Assembly: GCA_963662625.1 (NCBI GenBank)
Contig: OY759726.1
Coordinates: 1,794,699-1,858,698 of the forward strand
Origin: Nitrosopumilus sp.
Lineage (GTDB): Archaea > Thermoproteota > Nitrososphaeria > Nitrososphaerales > Nitrosopumilaceae
Reading direction: 5' to 3'
Length of the DNA: 64,000 nt
Under the pieces are notes generated by a model. The model was not told the DNA's origin and searched no databases. It saw nothing but the letters and a program-made list of their open reading frames with translations. Made by a program: the position numbers and the translations under genes. This document shows positions 11,975-17,819 of the stretch, piece after piece. Position 1 is the stretch's first letter, and each line of letters starts with the position of its first letter.

Positions 11975-13255
11975 ATGGTCTTCGGGTGGGGCAGGAAGAA
12001 GGAGGAGGAGCCCGGGCTGCAGGAGATGCCCGCGAGGGAGATCCCCCTGTCAGACGTCCCGCGGGTGGCCTCCGAGCTGCTCGAGCTGCGCAGGTCCCAG
12101 GCCGTCTCCGAGGTCAGGCTGTGCCGGGACCGGGCCGTCCCGCTCCTGAGCGAGGTATCCTACATAGGCAGGGAGCTCGAAAAGGACGACCTCAACGTGG
12201 AGGACATCGACAAGAACATCCGCGTGATAGTCGTCCGCGGGAAGAAGCAGGTGATCGACACCATCAGGAAGGAGATAACGGACCTGCCGGCAATATCCAG
12301 CTACGACGACGCCGTGGCGCTCAACGGCGCGCTGAACCAGGCGCTGAAGAAGGTGGGGGACGTCCTGGGGAGGCAGACGCGGGTCATACACATCTTCGCG
12401 AAGAAGTACGCCTCGAAGCTCAAGGAGATCCTGGCCGAGGTGGCGTCCATCAACGACGACGTCGGGAAGATCCTGCAGAACTTCGCCCGCTCCGACTCGG
12501 AGAACGCGGCGATCAACGGCCTGATAGGCGAGATTGCCGAGCTGGAGGGCTTTAACGCTGAGTCGAGGCAGAAGGCCTCGTCGCTGGCAGGCAGCCTCGC
12601 AGAGTGCCGGGGGAGGATCGCCGCGTGCAGGGAGTCCATCGCGGGCATAAAGTCATCCCAGGGATACGCCCGCCTGCTGGAGACGAAGGAGGCACTGGAG
12701 CGGCTCCGCGCCCAGAGGGCCAGCATGAGCGGCAGGGTGGCCGACCGGTTCACGAGGGTGTCCAGGCCCCTCGGCAGGTACGAGTACGCCTCGTCGCTCG
12801 ACAAGGAGCAGAAGGCGCTGCTCTCCGGCCTGATCCAGTCGCCCTTCGAGGTCCTCACCCCGGGCAACGAGAGGGCAATCATCGTGATACTGGAGAACGT
12901 CAAGAAGGGCGTCTCTGCGGGCTCCATATCGGTCAAGGACCGCGAGAAGGCCATCCTGCACATCACCGAGCTGGAGGACGCCCTCGGCGGCATCATCTCC
13001 GAGATCGCCGAGAACGCCTCCGGGCAGGAATCGGCCAGGGCGGCCATCGAGGAGCTGACCCCCCCGGAGCTTGCCGTGCTGGAGAAGGATCTCGCAAAGT
13101 CCACGCTCGACGAGTCTTCCGCGGAGTCCAGGATCAGGTCCCTGGGCGGCGAGGTATCCGCAAACGAGGCCAGGATACCCCGCATCGTGGGCGAGATCGA
13201 GTCGAGGCTACGCCGCTTTACCAGCACCAGGTACTCCATAACCACTGAAGACTAA
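11975..13255 (+). CDS. Coiled-coil conserved hypothetical protein
   Basis: Long ORF with host-like codon use, MVFGWGRKK start after ATTTAAT box; predicted coiled coil. Confidence 0.8.
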   Translation: MVFGWGRKKEEEPGLQEMPAREIPLSDVPRVASELLELRRSQAVSEVRLCRDRAVPLLSEVSYIGRELEKDDLNVEDIDKNIRVIVVRGKKQVIDTIRKEITDLPAISSYDDAVALNGALNQALKKVGDVLGRQTRVIHIFAKKYASKLKEILAEVASINDDVGKILQNFARSDSENAAINGLIGEIAELEGFNAESRQKASSLAGSLAECRGRIAACRESIAGIKSSQGYARLLETKEALERLRAQRASMSGRVADRFTRVSRPLGRYEYASSLDKEQKALLSGLIQSPFEVLTPGNERAIIVILENVKKGVSAGSISVKDREKAILHITELEDALGGIISEIAENASGQESARAAIEELTPPELAVLEKDLAKSTLDESSAESRIRSLGGEVSANEARIPRIVGEIESRLRRFTSTRYSITTED

Positions 13256-13283
13256 TTAGGCCATGCGCGTACCAGAACCCAGT

Positions 13284-13679
13284 ATGCTATTCGGGAAGAA
13301 GTTCGAACGGCAGGTCTCCCTGCAGAGGGACGTCCTAGACAGCATACTGTCATACTGCAAGATGAAGCACCCTAACGAGGGGATCCTGATCCTGAAGGGC
13401 AAGTCCAAGAAGGGCGACATCAGGGTGGACGGCCTGGTGATCCCCCCGTTCAACTACACGGGCCCCACGTTTGCCGGCTTCCCGCACTCGTTCCTGCCGT
13501 TTGACATGAGCTACGTCGGCAGCGTCCACTCCCACCCGAGCGGCTCTGCGGACCCCTCGATCACCGACCTGCACAACTTCTTCGGGCTGGTGTCGGTCAT
13601 AGTCAAGGCCCCGTACGAGGATGAGGACGTCTTTGCGTGGGACAGCGGGGGCAAGCCCATCAGGATCGACATAGTCTGA
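13284..13679 (+). CDS. JAB/MPN (JAMM) metalloprotease
   Basis: PNE...HSHPSGSADPSITD JAMM motif. Confidence 0.92.
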   Translation: MLFGKKFERQVSLQRDVLDSILSYCKMKHPNEGILILKGKSKKGDIRVDGLVIPPFNYTGPTFAGFPHSFLPFDMSYVGSVHSHPSGSADPSITDLHNFFGLVSVIVKAPYEDEDVFAWDSGGKPIRIDIV

Positions 13680-13919
13680 CGGCCCCGTCGTGCGTCCTTG
13701 GGGCGCCAAAGTGGAACAGCGTGGCCGCGACGCGCTGGCGGACGTGCCCTTGGCTGGGTACTCGCACCCCCCGACGGCCGCTCCTACGAAGCGTTCCTCC
13801 GGGCGCTCGTGCTCCAAACCGTGGGCATCGAGTGCTTCCCGCACGTCGTCCGTGGCCACGTCAGGCCATAGTTTCCCAGCAGCTTCCGGGCCGTCCTGGA
13901 AGCGGTCGTCGTTTGCCAT
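13680..13919 (-). pseudogene. Unknown ORF starting 2 nt after hammerhead cleavage site; apparently 3' truncated
   Basis: MANDDRFQDGPEAAGKLWPDVATDDVREALDAHGLEHERPEERFVGAAVGGCEYPAK...; frame runs on antisense into the JAB gene to a stop at 13350. Confidence 0.4.
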
Positions 13920-13967
13920 GCGACGCCGCTCGCGGCGTTTCGGCCACCGGGGCCTCATCAGGCAGGC
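13915..13967 (-). ncRNA. Type I hammerhead ribozyme (copy B)
   Basis: Minus strand: gccugc CUGAUGA ggcc-ccggu-ggcc GAAAC gccg-cgag-cggc GUC^ gcauggc; full catalytic core and stems I-III. Confidence 0.93.
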
Positions 13968-14029
13968 TGTCTGGGCGTCTTTCAAAAATTAAATACTCGG
14001 GGGTCCAACATCAGGTGGTGGGGGCTCAG
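13915..14029. repeat. 115-bp direct repeat (partner 15493-15607)
   Basis: Ungapped alignment at offset 1578, 11 mismatches by manual count; similarity resumes at 14089-14130 vs 15706-15749. Confidence 0.95.
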
Positions 14030-14108
14030 CTGGACTTTAGTCCACCTACTCTTCATCTCCAGATGAAGGGATTAGCAGTGCCAAGTTTTCATCATCGCCC
14101 TCACCATC
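14014..14108 (-). ncRNA. Box C/D-type RNA (unit B)
   Basis: Terminal stem, C AUGAUGA (14095-14089), D' CUAA (14075-14072) or CUGG (14062-14059), C' AUGAAGA (14056-14050), 20-nt guide, D CUGA (14029-14026). Confidence 0.75.
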
Positions 14109-14175
14109 CAAGCCAGTCCCATGGGACGGCCATCCCAAATCGAACACTAAAATAACTCCGGGGCCTCCTGAAGGT

Positions 14176-14245
14176 GGCGAGGGGTCAGATCTGACAGTCA
14201 TCATCACAATGATGATCAGAAGCCGTTCTCATCATCCCCCTCGCC
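14176..14245 (-). ncRNA. Compact box C/D-type RNA with two 9-nt guides (unit C)
   Basis: GGCGAGGGG g AUGAUGA gaacggcuu CUGA ucaucauugug AUGAUGA cugucagau CUGA CCCCUCGCC: four perfect boxes and a perfect 9-bp terminal stem. Confidence 0.85.
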
Positions 14246-14643
14246 CGGTTCACCCGGCACTTGCCGGGAAATGCCGCCAACCGGCGTGACTGCCGGACCA
14301 ATTCCGGCGTGAAAACGTGAAAGGAGACGTCTTGCGTGAGACAAGACACATGGAAGAAGGCACGTAGGATGTCTCGTGTGGCATAAGACGCGGCGCCATG
14401 GTGACACTTTGGCATGTTAGATGGGGGTTTACTAGGGTCCGATTTTGTGTTTGGTGTTTTGTTCCTGTTTTGGTTGGAACGCCCACCATAACCGCGAAGG
14501 ATACTAGGGAGTTCGGGTTTTGTCGGAGCCCGCAGACGTCCTCCCCCGCAGGGTATATGGATCGCGCCGTCCCGGGGTTGCCAACGGGGCCACTGGCTGC
14601 CGGCGCGGCCGCGCCCGCGGCGCTCCTTGAACGACATGGACCG

Positions 14644-15270
14644 TCAGTCGAACAGACTGTAGAGCTGGCTGTCTGTAAGACGTGGGGCTTCGCGGGTCTC
14701 GGAGCACATGTTTGACACGTACCTGCCGTGTTCCGGAAGGTAGATGCCCTTCCCCGGAACGTATCTCCCGATGCCCTGCAGTATGCGGGCGACATCCCCT
14801 TGAGAGTGGCTCTCGGCCACTGAAGTTGCCATGGATCCCCTGCCGGGGGTTTCGCCCATCCAGGGCTCCTCAGCATGGCTTCGTTTGGTAAAAAAGGGGG
14901 CGGCTACCGCCTGCCGCCCATGCCGTCCCTGAGCCTTTGCCAGTGGGCCTTTTAGGTCCCACGACCTTTTTGGCGCAGAACTCGAGCCGCCGGAGGACCC
15001 CGCGGGGGAGGCACTCTTCCAGGTCAGACCTGGACTCCCCCGGAGCAGCTGCTCCAGAACCGCCTTGCACTTGGCCGGCCCCATGGCTTGGAATTGCTCC
15101 CTGTACCAATCGGAACCGTGGAAGTCCGGCGGGTTGCAGAACTGGCACTCCTCCCCGTACTCGTCCCCGCGGGGATTGACGTGGTCGTGCGCGTCCGCTT
15201 GATCCTTTTCGATCAGTTTGGCGGCCAGCAGGTAGTGCTCGACCACCCGAGCCGATGGGAGTTCCCCCAT
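14644..15270 (-). CDS. Hypothetical protein, possibly frameshifted continuation of 15213-15497
   Basis: 208-aa ORF with HxH...CxxC; no recognisable family. Confidence 0.4.
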   Translation of the reverse strand: MGELPSARVVEHYLLAAKLIEKDQADAHDHVNPRGDEYGEECQFCNPPDFHGSDWYREQFQAMGPAKCKAVLEQLLRGSPGLTWKSASPAGSSGGSSSAPKRSWDLKGPLAKAQGRHGRQAVAAPFFTKRSHAEEPWMGETPGRGSMATSVAESHSQGDVARILQGIGRYVPGKGIYLPEHGRYVSNMCSETREAPRLTDSQLYSLFD

Positions 15271-15497
15271 CCGGTGCCGATTGGATTCCCGGAGCCTACG
15301 TCCGTCAGTACGTCGCCGTCACTTATGGCGACAACATCGTTCTTGCAATAAAATTTGCGGGTTCGGCCCTCTGGGCCGGCTTGGGCGCGTACGGCGTCGT
15401 CGAGGCCTAGCCTCTCCTGTACGTGCTTGCAGACGCTTTTGGTTAAGAACGTCCTACCTCCTATGGAGATTTGCTTCATGACTGTTTGTTCTGCCAT
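15213..15497 (-). CDS. Hypothetical protein starting 2 nt after hammerhead cleavage site
   Basis: MAEQTVMKQISIGGRTFLTKSVCKHVQERLG...; overlaps the next ORF in another frame. Confidence 0.45.
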   Translation of the reverse strand: MAEQTVMKQISIGGRTFLTKSVCKHVQERLGLDDAVRAQAGPEGRTRKFYCKNDVVAISDGDVLTDVGSGNPIGTGWGNSHRLGWSSTTCWPPN

Positions 15498-15545
15498 GCG
15501 ACGCCGCTCGCGGCGTTTCGACCATTCAGGTCTCATCAGGCAGGC
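15493..15545 (-). ncRNA. Type I hammerhead ribozyme (copy A)
   Basis: Minus strand: gccugc CUGAUGA gacc-ugaau-gguc GAAAC gccg-cgag-cggc GUC^ gcauggc; stem II covaries with copy B. Confidence 0.93.
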
Positions 15546-15591
15546 TGCCTGGCCGTCGTTCAAAAATTAAATACTCGGGGATCCAACATCC

Positions 15592-15725
15592 GGTGGTGGG
15601 GGCTCAGTTGTCACGGCTTGAAGATGTCTCATCATTTGCGCCATGTCAGACTTTCACTGGAGTACAGCGTCGGCACTGGCATCATCATCATCGCCCTCAC
15701 TGGCATCATCATCGCCCTCACCATC
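15592..15725 (-). ncRNA. Box C/D-type RNA (unit A)
   Basis: Same terminal stem as unit B; C AUGAUGA (duplicated by a ~21-24-nt tandem duplication), D' CUGA (15649-15646), C' AUGAUGA (15635-15629), 21-nt guide, D CUGA (15607-15604). Confidence 0.8.
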
Positions 15726-15795
15726 CAAGCCGGATCAGATGGGAACGGCGCGGTCGACAAAACTTTATAAGGTTTTTGACGGTAGTTGCAGTGGA

Positions 15796-16125
15796 TTGTT
15801 CAGCTACAAGACTTATTTGATCTTCCTTTTCGTGTCACTGGCGGTCAGCATCGGCCTGCAGATGGTCCTGCCGTTCCCGTACGGCCTCGGGGTCGCGCTG
15901 GCGCTGTTCATCGCGTTCCCGCTGCTGCTCAGGAGAAAGTACATGAACCGCATGAGGGGCGGATACGGAGGCTCCGGCTCCGGCTCGTCCGGGGGCGGCG
16001 GGTTCTTCGGGCTCGGCTCGTCCGGCGGCAGCTCGGTCAGGTACGTGTGCCTCGTGTGCAACAACAAGCACAAGGGGGGCGCCTGCCCTCGCTGCGGTTC
16101 CAAGATGCAAAGGGCGGACTTTTAG
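15796..16125 (+). CDS. Membrane protein with Gly-rich linker and C-terminal zinc ribbon
   Basis: Two TM helices, CLVC...CPRCG; TTG start ~25 nt after TTTATAA. Confidence 0.8.
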   Translation: MFSYKTYLIFLFVSLAVSIGLQMVLPFPYGLGVALALFIAFPLLLRRKYMNRMRGGYGGSGSGSSGGGGFFGLGSSGGSSVRYVCLVCNNKHKGGACPRCGSKMQRADF

Positions 16126-16137
16126 GGGGGCGCCTGC

Positions 16138-16449
16138 ATGTCGCTGGACGAGCTGCGCAAGAAGGTGATCTTCCACAACTCGGTCGACGTCTGGATCGCG
16201 TCGTGCGCCGAAAGGGGCGGCGACTGGACGGACACGGACGGCTACAGGGGGTTCATCGCGTTCCTGCTCGAGAACGGCCTGAACATGAAGGCGTTTTCCC
16301 TGTGCGCGCACGAGGCGGGCGACGACGAGGCCGAAAGGACGAGGTTCGCGGAGTCGCTGGCAGGCTCGGGGGACGACCCGAATTCCTCGATCTACACCAT
16401 CAAGCTCAGCGACCAGGCGCTGGAGACGATCCGCCGGTTCGGCCGGTGA
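16138..16449 (+). CDS. Conserved hypothetical protein
   Basis: Host-like ORF in operon with the previous gene. Confidence 0.75.
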   Translation: MSLDELRKKVIFHNSVDVWIASCAERGGDWTDTDGYRGFIAFLLENGLNMKAFSLCAHEAGDDEAERTRFAESLAGSGDDPNSSIYTIKLSDQALETIRRFGR

Positions 16450-16451
16450 TC

Positions 16452-17819
16452 TCACCCCCTCAGTTTCGGGTTGACGATCGCGTCGAGCGCGTTCCCGATG
16501 AAGACGAACGCCAGCCCCGTGACGGCAATCATCATCCCGGGGGGCGTGATCCACCACCACAGGCCCCTCGCGGCGGCGCCGTACACGTTTGCGTCGTGCA
16601 GGATCTGCCCCCACGTGGGGAACGACGGGTCCCCCAGCCCGAGGAAGCTCAGCCCCGCCTCCGTGGTGATCGCGGCCGGGACCGAGATCGCTATGCTTGC
16701 AAACGCGTACGGGAGCAGCTGCGGCAGTATGTGCTTCACGATTATCCTGGAGTCCCTCTGCCCCATCATGGTTGCGGCCTCCACGTACCCGCGCGTCTTG
16801 ATCTGGAGCGCCATGCTCCTTGACACCTTGGCTATCCCGACCCAGCCGAACATCATCAGGAACCCGATCATCAGGAATATGCTGTTGCTTATGGTGACCG
16901 ACAGTATTATGAGGAACGGCAGCGCGGGGAGCGCGTAGATCACGTCGTTGAAGCGCATCATGGCCTCGTCCGTCTTCCTTCCGCGGTATCCCGCGTATAT
17001 CCCGTACAGCAGGCCCATCATCACGGACGCGATCGCGACCGCCAGCCCTATGAACAGGGCAAGCGGCGTCCCCCAGAGCAGCCCCAGGGCCAGGTCCCTC
17101 CGCAGCTCGTCGGTGCCCATCACCCCGAAGGCCTTGCCCCCCACGATGACCCTGGAGTCGGTTATCTCGGCCTCGCCCCCCGCCCCGTACAGGTTCACCA
17201 GGAACACGTACCTGCCCTTCAGGGGCTCGTGGGCGCCCTCCTTGGAGAACACTACGTCCTCTGCCGGCATGCCGCGCGGGTCGAATGCAAACCCGGCGCC
17301 CTGCATGGCGGCGTTCTTCCTGACGGTCTCGTCGGTGGAGAATACCCTCTCGCCGTGGACGGCGGGCGACTCGGAGTACGGCAGCGGCGCCGAGAGCAGC
17401 AGGATCTCCCGGGAGTCGGGCCGCACGACCGACAGCTGCAGCAGCGGCGAGCCCGAGTACCGCGCGGTGATCTCGTAGATGAAGTCGTTTGGAAAGTCGT
17501 CGTAGTCGAAGATGGTCGCGAACTGGTGCGACGACAGCGTGACGCCGCCACGCCGGTCGGACAGGACCTCTGGGGAGTCGAGGATCTTGTGCTCCGGGAT
17601 CTTCTCCCCCAGGAACGCGTTCACCCACGCCGGGACCGCGGCCTTGGGGTACCCGAGCCAGCTGCTCGGGTCGTTCCATTCCTTGAGCGTCTCGGCCGGG
17701 ATCACGGCCACCGCGAGGATCGACGTGGCGGCCAGGCCGGCCAGGATCGCCACCCCCGCCATCCCGATCCTGCTCCTCGCGAACTCCGCCCGGATCTCCT
17801 GCGGGGTGGCGCTGCTCAA
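16452..17819 (-). CDS. Peptide/nickel ABC transporter permease (DppC/OppC-like)
   Basis: GTDELRRD, EAA loop (YVEAATMMG), LSFLGLG..PTWG. Confidence 0.93.
   Translation of the reverse strand: MSSATPQEIRAEFARSRIGMAGVAILAGLAATSILAVAVIPAETLKEWNDPSSWLGYPKAAVPAWVNAFLGEKIPEHKILDSPEVLSDRRGGVTLSSHQFATIFDYDDFPNDFIYEITARYSGSPLLQLSVVRPDSREILLLSAPLPYSESPAVHGERVFSTDETVRKNAAMQGAGFAFDPRGMPAEDVVFSKEGAHEPLKGRYVFLVNLYGAGGEAEITDSRVIVGGKAFGVMGTDELRRDLALGLLWGTPLALFIGLAVAIASVMMGLLYGIYAGYRGRKTDEAMMRFNDVIYALPALPFLIILSVTISNSIFLMIGFLMMFGWVGIAKVSRSMALQIKTRGYVEAATMMGQRDSRIIVKHILPQLLPYAFASIAISVPAAITTEAGLSFLGLGDPSFPTWGQILHDANVYGAAARGLWWWITPPGMMIAVTGLAFVFIGNALDAIVNPKLRG

Follow-up and report, generated by a model that had tools for sequence, protein, structure and literature searches.

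Does the 70-nt unit at positions 14176-14245 on the minus strand of this Nitrosopumilus sp. contig belong to a TIGR-Tas-like targeting system, or is it a box C/D small RNA of unusual geometry? Both readings were offered in the initial annotation of the window (the whole 64,000-nt stretch analyzed), which described a perfect C-D'-C'-D RNA with two 9-nt guides. All elements of that description, namely a stem, AUGAUGA, gaacggcuu, CUGA, a linker, AUGAUGA, cugucagau and CUGA, are present on the minus strand in what we here call unit B. Its terminal stem consists of the 5' strand GGCGAGGGG (14237-14245), which pairs perfectly with the 3' strand CCCCUCGCC (14176-14184), a pairing also seen in the predicted fold and in covariation across the family. 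An unpaired G (14236) lies 3' of the first stem strand, followed by the C box AUGAUGA (14229-14235), the 9-nt D' guide gaacggcuu (14220-14228), the D' box CUGA (14216-14219) and an 8-nt linker, ucaucauu (14208-14215), that is complementary to the C' box and pairs with its UGAUGA in the minimum free energy (MFE) fold. The D box CUGA occupies 14185-14188, and stem and boxes were read directly from the sequence. All four boxes are perfect, with C and D at the ends and D' and C' internal. By reading, the 9-bp stem leads into G-A-U, after which GAUGA stands opposite CUGA, an arrangement (stem, three unpaired nucleotides, GA) that, by K-turn rules, we take to be the K-turn register. Comparable complementarity between linker and C' box was noticed by eye in units of a second genome of the genus (G002) and in a copy at genome position 149897.

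The apparent symmetry of the two guides depends on how the C' box is read. Its region, UGUGAUGAUGA, contains two C' boxes that overlap. In one register, the linker extends to ucaucauugug and is followed by AUGAUGA (14198-14204) and the 9-nt cugucagau (14189-14197); in the other, the C' box is GUGAUGA (14201-14207) and the D guide becomes ugacugucagau, 12 nt long (14189-14200). We prefer GUGAUGA because both the Rfam alignment and a gap-free alignment to an ortholog support it, and the D guide is therefore assigned 12 nt. The 9+9 symmetry arises because the overlapping UGAUGAUGA repeat supplies a second register. On these alignments, the D' spacer is the only one of the two that is truly 9 nt, so that one of the two 9-nt guides of the first description stands and the other does not.

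Unit B is distinct from chance sequence. A strict C-D'-C'-D scan of both strands of the 1,858,698-base genome (63% GC, single contig, 99.5% complete) returned it as the sole match, and its fold of -32.4 kcal/mol (z = -4.60) was equaled by none of 200 shuffles. The Rfam model snoPyro_CD (RF00095) aligns over its full length with 35.1 bits (E = 3.4e-5), short of the gathering score of 45; at gathering thresholds, Rfam gave no matches in the whole window. No AT-rich promoter box was seen within ~80 nt upstream. Among the sequencing runs listed for the stretch, none was of RNA; DNA contigs of runs X1-X3 contain unit B with zero differences, which is uninformative on expression.

Relatives of the unit provided the context for this geometry. 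Model R1, which scores unit B at 94.7 bits, found 53 matches in 25 sources. One of these units, on contig C24 of G002, is a same-genus ortholog with 12+12-nt spacers and an equal D'-to-D distance; its alignment to unit B is gap-free over the linker (8), the C' box (7) and the guide (12). Three positions of the terminal stem differ between the two, and all three changes are compensatory. The D' spacer of unit B is 3 nt shorter (9 versus 12 nt), and a 9-nt D' spacer occurs in none of the 38 parsed family units, where spacers range from 11 to 14 nt. Measured against the 12-nt state, which the ortholog and most family members show, the spacer has lost 3 nt. Among 50 distinct members, 90.4% of terminal-stem cells are paired, as high as in none of 500 shuffles, and 59 stem cells across the family are doubly changed against 20.1 expected, a number likewise reached by 0 of 500 shuffles. 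The inner 6 bp of the 9-bp stem are near-invariant family-wide. No synteny of the ortholog's locus with the window was seen within 3 kb; weak protein similarity to another G002 contig (C31) was found at a 149-kb locus only. Unit B belongs, as a diverged copy, to a C/D sRNA family of Nitrosopumilaceae whose members have a near-invariant terminal stem and boxes in common but differ in their guides. In related metagenome-assembled genomes (MAGs), such sRNA genes form runs of five to ten in regular arrays with a 130-nt period. The runs have one scaffold and one inter-unit spacer in common, and a hammerhead ribozyme forms the end of several of them. Going solely by box architecture, we infer that the array units are methylation guides.

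With the family in place, the proposal that unit B is a tigRNA whose two 9-nt spacers direct a Nop-domain Tas protein to both strands of a DNA target could be examined directly. Its appeal is evident: each guide is bounded by box C-like and D-like motifs, one register yields 9 + 9 nt between them, and the accessible text of Faure et al. 2025 (PMC12045711) attributes box C/D-like motifs and 9-nt spacers to tigRNAs. The same text describes TIGR arrays as mostly 5-15 tandem 36-nt units with alternating edge and loop repeats of 8-12 nt, whereas unit B is a single 70-nt unit with a 9-bp stem and consensus boxes in a full K-turn register instead of short edge/loop repeats, and Tandem Repeats Finder detected no tandem TIGR-type array over 12000-17000. 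A six-frame search of the whole genome with PF01798 (E <= 1), a profile that could miss a very divergent Nop fold, returned one match, Nop5 at genome 524389-525027, which adjoins fibrillarin and lies ~1.28 Mb from unit B. The earlier observation that no Nop-domain gene is recognizable in the window can be set beside the genome-wide result, in which Nop5 is the only one and a Tas gene was not detected by this search. The suggested adjacent 9+9 matches on opposite strands did not stand out either. In the unit's own genome, the sites found for the four possible arrangements, at gaps of 0-3, all had two or three mismatches. Viral contigs contained the two exact joined 9+9 patterns at 11 and 4 loci against 0 and 0 for reversed controls, but these controls are imperfect, as they contain rare TAG-type words and are unequal in composition. 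The 11 loci reduce to five different sequences, which vary in GC and have flanks unrelated to one another, and the matches do not come from evident archaeal viruses; we read them as chance. Together with the 12+12-nt spacers of the ortholog and the rRNA and tRNA matches of family members described below, these results make a tigRNA identity scarcely credible. We are highly confident that unit B is a C/D sRNA rather than a TIGR-type RNA, in agreement with the alternative of an atypical sRNA, the atypical part being its 9-nt D' spacer.

The genome encodes the expected core proteins: Nop5 (225 bits), the adjoining fibrillarin (271 bits) and L7Ae (91 bits). Unit B resembles archaeal box C/D sRNAs (RF00095 and the sR families) in this gene set, in its C, D', C' and D boxes, in its K-turn stem and 12-nt D guide, and in having paralogs and orthologs with 10-12 bp of rRNA or tRNA complementarity by the N+5 rule. 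It departs from them in the family's 9-bp stem with near-invariant inner 6 bp, in the sub-gathering RF00095 score, in the weak rRNA matches of its own guides and in a D' spacer of 9 nt, compared with a published archaeal range of 10-12 nt in the portions of PMC7994747 and PMC7229835 available to us. A further parallel is to sRNA and snoRNA clusters, that is, 2017 work as summarized in the accessible part of PMC7994747 and plant snoRNA clusters: on the same strand, 70 nt separate unit B from a second unit, A1, and related MAGs carry the runs of five to ten genes. Unlike those clusters as described there, the MAG runs are regular (130-nt step), share scaffold and spacer and in several cases have a hammerhead end.

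For several family members, guide targets are clear. In G002, the ortholog and a paralog carry D guides that match LSU rRNA 2011-2024 over 10/10 and 11/11 positions. This site lies in a hairpin just 5' of UAAGGUAGC, presumably helix 69, with G2015 as the N+5 nucleotide. The D' guide of the copy at genome 149897 pairs 12/12 with LSU 858, and that of the copy at genome 149745 pairs 11/11 with SSU 1348, a match made identically by its G002 counterpart. R1 and the alignment tie unit B to the G002 units with clear LSU matches. For unit B itself, the proposed search of both guides against rRNA yielded weak matches in LSU rRNA. The D' guide pairs best with 2815-2823 (9 bp, 8 Watson-Crick and one G-U; N+5 = C2819), and the D guide forms 8 bp with 2790-2797 (N+5 = G2794). 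Each is individually at chance level: D' matches reaching 9 bp and 8 Watson-Crick pairs occurred in 343 of 1,500 shuffles, and D matches reaching 8 bp and 7 Watson-Crick pairs in 1,211 of 1,500. The two sites are 25 nt apart, and both fell within 60 nt in 27 of 1,500 shuffles, a proximity test chosen post hoc with the data already seen. The part of PMC4644070 accessible to us defines a 'double guide' by two sites within 100 nt and about 9 bp, with G:U allowed. The C2819 target is not conserved, because an A in G002 LSU rRNA, at 2820 in its own numbering, leaves the ortholog's D' guide with 5-6 bp. We found no convincing target of either unit B guide in 5S rRNA, RNase P RNA or SRP RNA. The G002 D' guide has a single perfect 12-mer match elsewhere in G002, antisense to a 441-aa ORF and within it, where Rfam has no match either, and this was taken as chance; a second perfect site for the complement of the G002 D guide was not found. 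We consider genuine methylation at G2794 and C2819 less likely than not.

Two neighboring units required separate consideration. A1 (14017-14105, minus strand), a second C/D-type unit, was read directly and follows unit B at a distance of 70 nt. Its stem is GGUGAGGGC/GCCCCCACC, ~20 nt separate its C'-like box from the D box, and it scores 26.4 bits against model R1 (E = 0.0047). Its flanks are the same as those of the units at genome 149745-149826 and at 15595-15722 of the window (minus strand). The latter unit, A2, corresponds to the 'unit A' of the initial annotation and is of C/D type with a duplicated 5' piece. Between A1 and the downstream hammerhead lies an AT-rich box, UAUUUAAUUUUU (13984-13995, minus strand), which is conserved in three of three module copies and could act as a TATA box, as a T-run terminator or in both roles. 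The noted complementarity of both unit B guides to A2 is real: A2 contains AAGCCGU (15613-15619, minus strand), complementary to the D' guide, and GUCUGACA (15644-15651, minus strand), complementary to the D guide. Unit B might then pair with A2 RNA through both guides, in regulation or sRNA methylation, and both runs occur jointly in just 57 of 5,000 shuffles of A2. This 1.1%, however, is uncorrected for the choice among several neighboring units, either run alone occurs in ~11% of shuffles, and the same two words are also found in LSU rRNA. Moreover, AAGCCGU lies within the D guide of A2 itself, and this guide, which matches tRNA-Asp(GUC) over 10/10 positions and recurs near-identically at three related loci, explains its presence. 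We regard such pairing as very improbable, and the complementarity as probably a coincidence.

More pertinent is whether unit B, as a C/D sRNA, still works. If it does, the terminal C and D boxes and the 9-bp stem would form a K-turn bound by L7Ae, Nop5-fibrillarin, encoded once in the genome, would bind thereafter, and ribose 2'-O-methylation would fall on the target nucleotide opposite guide base five, counted upstream from D or D'. The best present fit would be a double guide addressing G2794 with the D guide and C2819 with the D' guide, both in the stretch of LSU rRNA that follows the sarcin-ricin loop; pairing with the relatives' LSU 2011-2024 site has eroded. Alternatively, unit B might be a decaying or orphan copy that may fold and bind core proteins but guides no methylation, its D guide having drifted off the relatives' site and its D' spacer having been crippled by the 3-nt loss. 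At LSU 2011-2024, 6 contiguous bp are left, compared with 10-11 bp in the relatives, and decay would also fit the chance-level rRNA matches, the absence of a 9-nt D' spacer from the other family units and the location of unit B inside a module that has been segmentally duplicated and is partly broken. The genome yielded no further guide for LSU 2011-2024: every 9-mer antisense match lacks boxes and a look-alike at genome 1389278 was rejected on inspection; as an intact guide is lacking elsewhere, methylation at this site may simply be lost. Decay is clear in a sister copy that carries unit B's guides at genome 1742855-1742921: its boxes are mutated (AUGGUGA and GUGGUGA) and its stem is broken. 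Yet the contrast with this copy also speaks against decay of unit B, which has kept four perfect boxes and a perfect 9-bp stem in a 63% GC genome, suggesting that it is maintained by selection. The three compensatory stem changes relative to the ortholog and the nearness of the two best LSU sites weigh on the same side. On balance, we consider a decayed copy rather unlikely, though with an appreciable chance of being correct, and lean slightly towards unit B being a still-working, sRNP-forming methylation guide as opposed to a functionless relic.

The downstream surroundings of the sRNA units revealed a further RNA element. A type I hammerhead-like ribozyme was located at 13915-13968 (minus strand), with the cores CUGAUGAG and CGAAA and three stems read directly; the 3' strand of its stem I contains the AUG of the downstream ORF. 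The MFE fold of this copy itself differs and Rfam does not list it, but homologous copies fold as three-way junctions. Another, at 15493-15546 (minus strand), precedes a truncated ORF of 94 aa, scores 20.0 bits against RF00163 (E = 0.032, below the gathering score of 34) and folds by MFE as a three-way junction. An inter-ORF variant copy at 14828-14880 (minus strand), which aligns to genome 148960-149011, has the core CUGAGGAG and a weakened stem III, which makes its activity doubtful. CUGANGA and GAAA cores and three stems were read in eight hammerhead copies, with compensatory changes in stems I-III seen by eye. MFE folds gave a full three-way junction with open cores for five of the eight and nearly so for a sixth. 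Copies from G002 reached 35.4, 33.8 and 28.2 bits with RF00163, one of them passing the gathering score. The post-sRNA elements share cores, stems, a GUC triplet and an open stem I with type I hammerheads; they differ in that here the start codon of the next ORF lies inside the 3' strand of stem I and in that the window's own copies score ~20 bits or are unlisted. Because the start codon lies within stem I, the predicted cut falls 1-2 nt before the AUG. The sRNA genes lie upstream of type I hammerheads ending 1-2 nt before an AUG. For the ORFs that follow, neither Pfam nor PHROG gave a family. The linker of 70 nt that separates unit B from A1 was also considered as a dead hammerhead and rejected, its alignment to the G002 post-sRNA region being matched or bettered by 85 of 300 shuffles. 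Literature searches, with most subscription journals outside their reach, returned nothing relevant on hammerheads in ammonia-oxidizing archaea, Thaumarchaeota or Cenarchaeum and no prior description of a Nitrosopumilus box C/D sRNA.

Taken together, we tentatively propose, at less than even confidence, that unit B is a worn part of a so far undescribed Nitrosopumilaceae module in which runs of scaffold-sharing guides are followed by a type I hammerhead. On this proposal, the runs would differ in their guides only, with terminal stem, boxes and inter-unit spacer near-invariant, and the 130-nt arrays would resemble a CRISPR or TIGR layout, yet consist of rRNA and tRNA methylation guides. Hammerhead self-cleavage would part the guide RNAs from the mRNA, leaving a 1-2-nt leader, and in unit B, both the drift of the D guide and the 9-nt length of the D' spacer would reflect guide turnover within a fixed scaffold.

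For the interpretation of such loci, our data show that a TIGR-Tas-like reading finds no support in this genome or its relatives and that box registers need to be checked against an ortholog. Unit B is a naturally occurring C/D sRNA that combines perfect boxes with a 9-nt spacer and could serve to probe the minimum of the archaeal Nop5 'ruler'. Ammonia-oxidizing archaea emerge as having few C/D sRNAs, all drawn from one scaffold-sharing family that is arrayed in relatives, which bears on how guides originate. As predicted from the sequence, a cut 1-2 nt before the start codon and directly 3' of the guide genes suggests that ribozymes may separate sRNAs from mRNAs in these archaea and give rise to leaderless mRNAs.

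The box C/D sRNA gene at window 14176-14245 (-), here called unit B, reads GGCGAGGGG, G, AUGAUGA, gaacggcuu, CUGA, ucaucauu, GUGAUGA overlapping AUGAUGA, (uga)cugucagau, CUGA and CCCCUCGCC. Scanning both strands of the 1,858,698-base genome (63.4% GC) for a strict C-D'-C'-D pattern (C box, 7-16 nt, CUGA, 2-16 nt, C' box, 7-16 nt, CUGA) identified unit B as the sole match. Its fold z-score of -4.60 was equaled by none of 200 shuffles, and the Rfam Pyrococcus C/D model aligned to it end to end (35.1 bits, E = 3.4e-5) without reaching the gathering score of 45; at gathering thresholds, Rfam gave no match in the whole window. Because of the unique match, the fold score and the end-to-end alignment, we regard the pattern as real and not a product of chance. 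The initial annotation had described a perfect C-D'-C'-D RNA with two 9-nt guides. Its motif, boxes and stem stand, while its symmetric 9+9 register does not. The C' region, UGUGAUGAUGA, contains two overlapping C' boxes, of which the second (AUGAUGA), chosen previously, yields an 11-nt loop and a 9-nt D guide and the first (GUGAUGA, 14207-14201) an 8-nt linker and a 12-nt D guide. The GUGAUGA register is favored because the Rfam alignment uses it and because of an ortholog in the same-genus genome G002 (contig 24, 2259-2331), the only close homolog outside the source genome. This ortholog, organized as a 12-nt D' spacer, CUGA, an 8-nt linker, AUGAUGA, a 12-nt D guide and CUGA, aligns with unit B without gaps from D' to D; the sole length difference is 3 nt absent from the unit B D' spacer, and the stems show compensatory changes at three positions. 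With this register and the 3-nt loss, unit B combines one canonical 12-nt guide (D) with one truly short 9-nt spacer (D').

At window 14201-14215 (-), and in the equivalent parts of family members, the linker between D' and C' (ucauca) complements the C' box (ugauga) and may form an alternative hairpin competing with the C'/D' motif. A copy at genome position 149897 (genome coordinates refer to the whole contig) carries a different C' box that matches a different linker.

At E <= 0.1, a covariance model built from unit B and its ortholog matched 6 of 101 family genomes, the source genome counted, with strong matches confined to the source genome (four) and G002 (five). Among these relatives, the B-type copy at genome 149897-149967 has the same stem as unit B and other guides. 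Another copy, at genome 1742855-1742921 (+), has the same guides, including the 9-nt D' spacer, with mutated boxes (both C-type boxes hit by A-to-G changes) and a broken terminal stem, and can serve as an internal picture of neutral decay. Three A-type units (window 14017-14105 and 15595-15722, genome 149745-149826) have the stem GGUGAGGGC/GCCCCCACC. The shared-scaffold pattern occurred at 38 loci in a collection of species genomes, which may include genomes handled elsewhere in the analysis (for example, G-numbered ones), so that the sets are not independent. Judged by title, twenty-five loci came from Nitrosopumilaceae, Nitrosopumilus or Nitrososphaeria MAGs and four from other archaea; the remaining nine, all bacterial and lacking internal boxes, were taken as chance. 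The covariance model R1 aligned 53 matches (50 distinct) from 25 sources. In this alignment, 90.4% of terminal-stem cells are paired, 59 are doubly changed versus 20.1 expected (0 of 500 shuffles), and the inner six pairs are nearly invariant. We parsed 38 units from Nitroso- MAG loci, leaving out five further rows without clear internal boxes. D' spacers measured 12 nt in 27 units, 13 nt in eight, 14 nt in two, 11 nt in one and 9 nt in none, with a parser that mildly favors 12 nt; D spacers fell between 10 and 13 nt in 36 units, the other two having 17-18 nt. With no 9-nt D' spacer among the 38, that of unit B stands apart from the rest of the family, whose ancestral spacer length was most likely 12 nt. 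We place unit B in a lineage-specific family of C/D sRNAs with a common scaffold, as a member that has drifted and whose D' spacer is shortened by 3 nt, which bears out the ‘atypical sRNA’ alternative of the initial annotation.

The other proposal made initially, a tigRNA-like unit, found no support. A TIGR array consists of units in tandem, mostly 5-15 of them, in which two 8-12-nt repeats alternate and the spacers are 9 nt long; beside it lies a Tas gene with a Nop domain, processing yields tigRNAs of 36 nt, and the K-turn/L7 arrangement of snoRNAs is lacking (Faure et al., PMC12045711). In contrast to such tandem 36-nt units, unit B occurs singly, measures 70 nt and has a terminal stem of 9 bp, and no tandem array surrounds it within window 12000-17000. 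A six-frame search of the whole genome, rated 99.5% complete, with PF01798 (Nop) at E <= 1 returned no Nop-domain protein beyond Nop5 (524389-525027), which is directly adjoined by fibrillarin (523542-524189); L7Ae is encoded at 1145121-1145393. Adjacent opposite-strand 9+9 targets with fewer than two mismatches were absent from the organism's own genome. Viral contigs contained the dual-strand pattern at 11 loci (five distinct sequences) and at four loci, with unrelated flanks and mixed GC. Reversed-pattern controls, which hold rarer words, gave 0 and 0, and we read the viral matches as chance. Lacking an array, a Tas gene and a convincing paired target, this stemmed single unit was rejected as a tigRNA.

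Guide targets were sought in the 16S rRNA, 23S rRNA and 59 tRNA or pre-tRNA sequences of the source genome, as contiguous pairing covering the fifth base upstream of D or D' (N+5 rule as in PMC7994747). Several relatives pair along 10 or more positions: the D' guide of the 149897 copy with LSU 858 (12/12), that of the 149745 copy and likewise its G002 counterpart with SSU 1348 (11/11), and the D guide of the A-type unit at window 15595-15722 (-) with tRNA-Asp(GUC) around the anticodon (10/10), near-identical D guides being present in three related loci. The D guides of the G002 ortholog and a G002 paralog pair 10/10 and 11/11 with LSU 2011-2024 (N+5 = G2015), a hairpin just 5' of UAAGGUAGC that we take to be helix 69. 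Helix 69 is a published methylation hotspot (PMC4644070, PMC7994747). At this site, the unit B D guide has six contiguous pairs left, and no other guide for it was found in the source genome. The check suggested by the initial annotation, a search for guide complements in rRNA and tRNA, gave weak matches for unit B. The best matches were 9 bp (8 WC + 1 GU) for D' at LSU 2815-2823 (C2819) and 8 bp (7 WC + 1 GU) for D at LSU 2790-2797 (G2794), 25 nt apart and about 35-60 nt 3' of the sarcin-ricin motif, but such matches were common in shuffles (343/1500 for D', 1211/1500 for D). Both fell within 60 nt in 27/1500, a proximity test chosen after the data were seen. Relaxed pairing is accepted for ‘double guides’ within 100 nt (PMC4644070). 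The G002 ortholog D' guide misfits the 2815 site because G002 LSU has A at its own position 2820, and 5S, RNase P and SRP RNAs added no target for the unit B guides. The current targets of unit B are uncertain.

Archaeal spacers are described as ‘restricted to 12 nt’ or ‘10 to 12 nt’, with <=10 nt of substrate recognized and long spacers (21-23 nt) tolerated by a Sulfolobus enzyme; we saw no data there on shorter spacers (PMC7229835, PMC7994747). Spacing may be loose in this lineage, since a D' spacer of 9 nt recurs in a candidate sRNA at genome 438203-438255 (+), with a 10-bp terminal stem, and since 18-22 nt precede the D box of A-type units. Evidence on whether unit B is live or decaying points both ways. 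A functionless relic would be in keeping with the eroded guides and short D' spacer, with a locus that is a patchwork of duplicated, partly broken pieces, and with the lack of a visible AT-rich promoter box within about 80 nt upstream. In favor of a live gene, the boxes and stem of unit B are perfect, while the sister copy at 1742855 lost both, in part through A-to-G substitutions, and the stem differs from that of the G002 ortholog at three positions by compensatory changes. We consider a relic the less likely reading; a putative working, sRNP-forming guide RNA has somewhat better than even chances in our estimate, and any reading other than these two is very improbable.

Unit B belongs to a segmentally duplicated module of about 1.7 kb, found at window 13912-15612 and at genome 148770-150289, with roughly one and a half copies in the window. 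On the (-) strand, the module comprises, in order, a 200-nt conserved stretch, one sRNA each of B type and A type, and an AT-rich box (UAUUUAAUUUUU); then come a hammerhead-like element, a 198-aa ORF (cut to 94 aa in the window), another hammerhead and a 62-aa ORF. No Pfam or PHROG family was assigned to the module ORFs. In both loci, the conserved stretch (14419-14615, 197 nt, non-coding-looking) sits upstream of the B-type unit; its identity to genome 150092-150289 is 97%, far above the 81% of the neighboring sRNA cassette. The A-type unit at 15595-15722 (-) has a tandemly duplicated 5' piece (stem and C box twice) and a TATA-like CCUUAUAAAG box at 15763-15772.

The hammerhead-like elements are of type I and lie on the (-) strand at window 13915-13968, 15493-15546 and 14828-14880 (the last with an altered core and weak stem III) and at genome 149642-149696 and 148960-149011, each either closely following a C/D sRNA unit or separating two small ORFs. 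Their cores are CUGA(U/C)GAG and CGAAA, and they have a GUC triplet and three stems, with compensatory changes discerned by eye in all three stems across eight copies from the source genome and G002. MFE folds produced the full three-way junction with open cores in five of these eight and nearly so in a sixth; that of window copy 13915-13968 was not a three-way junction. Rfam RF00163 scored 35.4, 33.8 and 28.2 bits on G002 copies (gathering 34) and about 20 bits on two source-genome copies. In every copy, the AUG of the next ORF falls within the stem I 3' strand. As hammerheads cleave 3' of the NUH triplet, the predicted cut would lie 1-2 nt before the start codon. In genus g6, loci L133/L137 (genomes G049 and G007) contain a well-formed type I hammerhead (stems UCCC/GGGA, UCCG/CGGA and AACA/UGUU) that precedes a Shine-Dalgarno-like GAGGUGA and an AUG by about 25 nt, with no sRNA nearby; weak Rfam hammerhead matches occurred in four of five g6 genomes, G107 among them. 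Literature searches, which mostly excluded subscription journals, turned up no account of either hammerheads or C/D sRNAs from these archaea.

Few C/D sRNAs were detected in these archaea, with any RF00095 match at E <= 0.01 in 10 of 26 genomes. Further candidates in the source genome lie at 1032410-1032463 (+) and 285622-285678 (-), both from families conserved across several genera and the former with a D guide pairing over 14 bp with pre-tRNA-Ser(CGA), and at 328284-328331 (+). Related Nitrosopumilaceae MAGs carry scaffold-sharing units in regular tandem arrays: six are visible at locus L182 (five scoring with R1) and at least five at L157, both with a 130-nt step, and nine or ten at L153. 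On G002 contig 31 (L040/L046), a hammerhead follows each of four units at a distance of about 45 nt. Scaffold and inter-unit spacer are common to the array units, whose guides differ; exact duplicates and mutated C boxes occur among them. In several arrays the last element is a hammerhead, with an ORF behind it, and a hammerhead core was present within 400-nt flanks at five of eight multi-unit loci versus none of 30 single-unit loci. More unusual than unit B itself is its context, in which guide RNA genes occur in runs and are tied to hammerheads ending at start codons.
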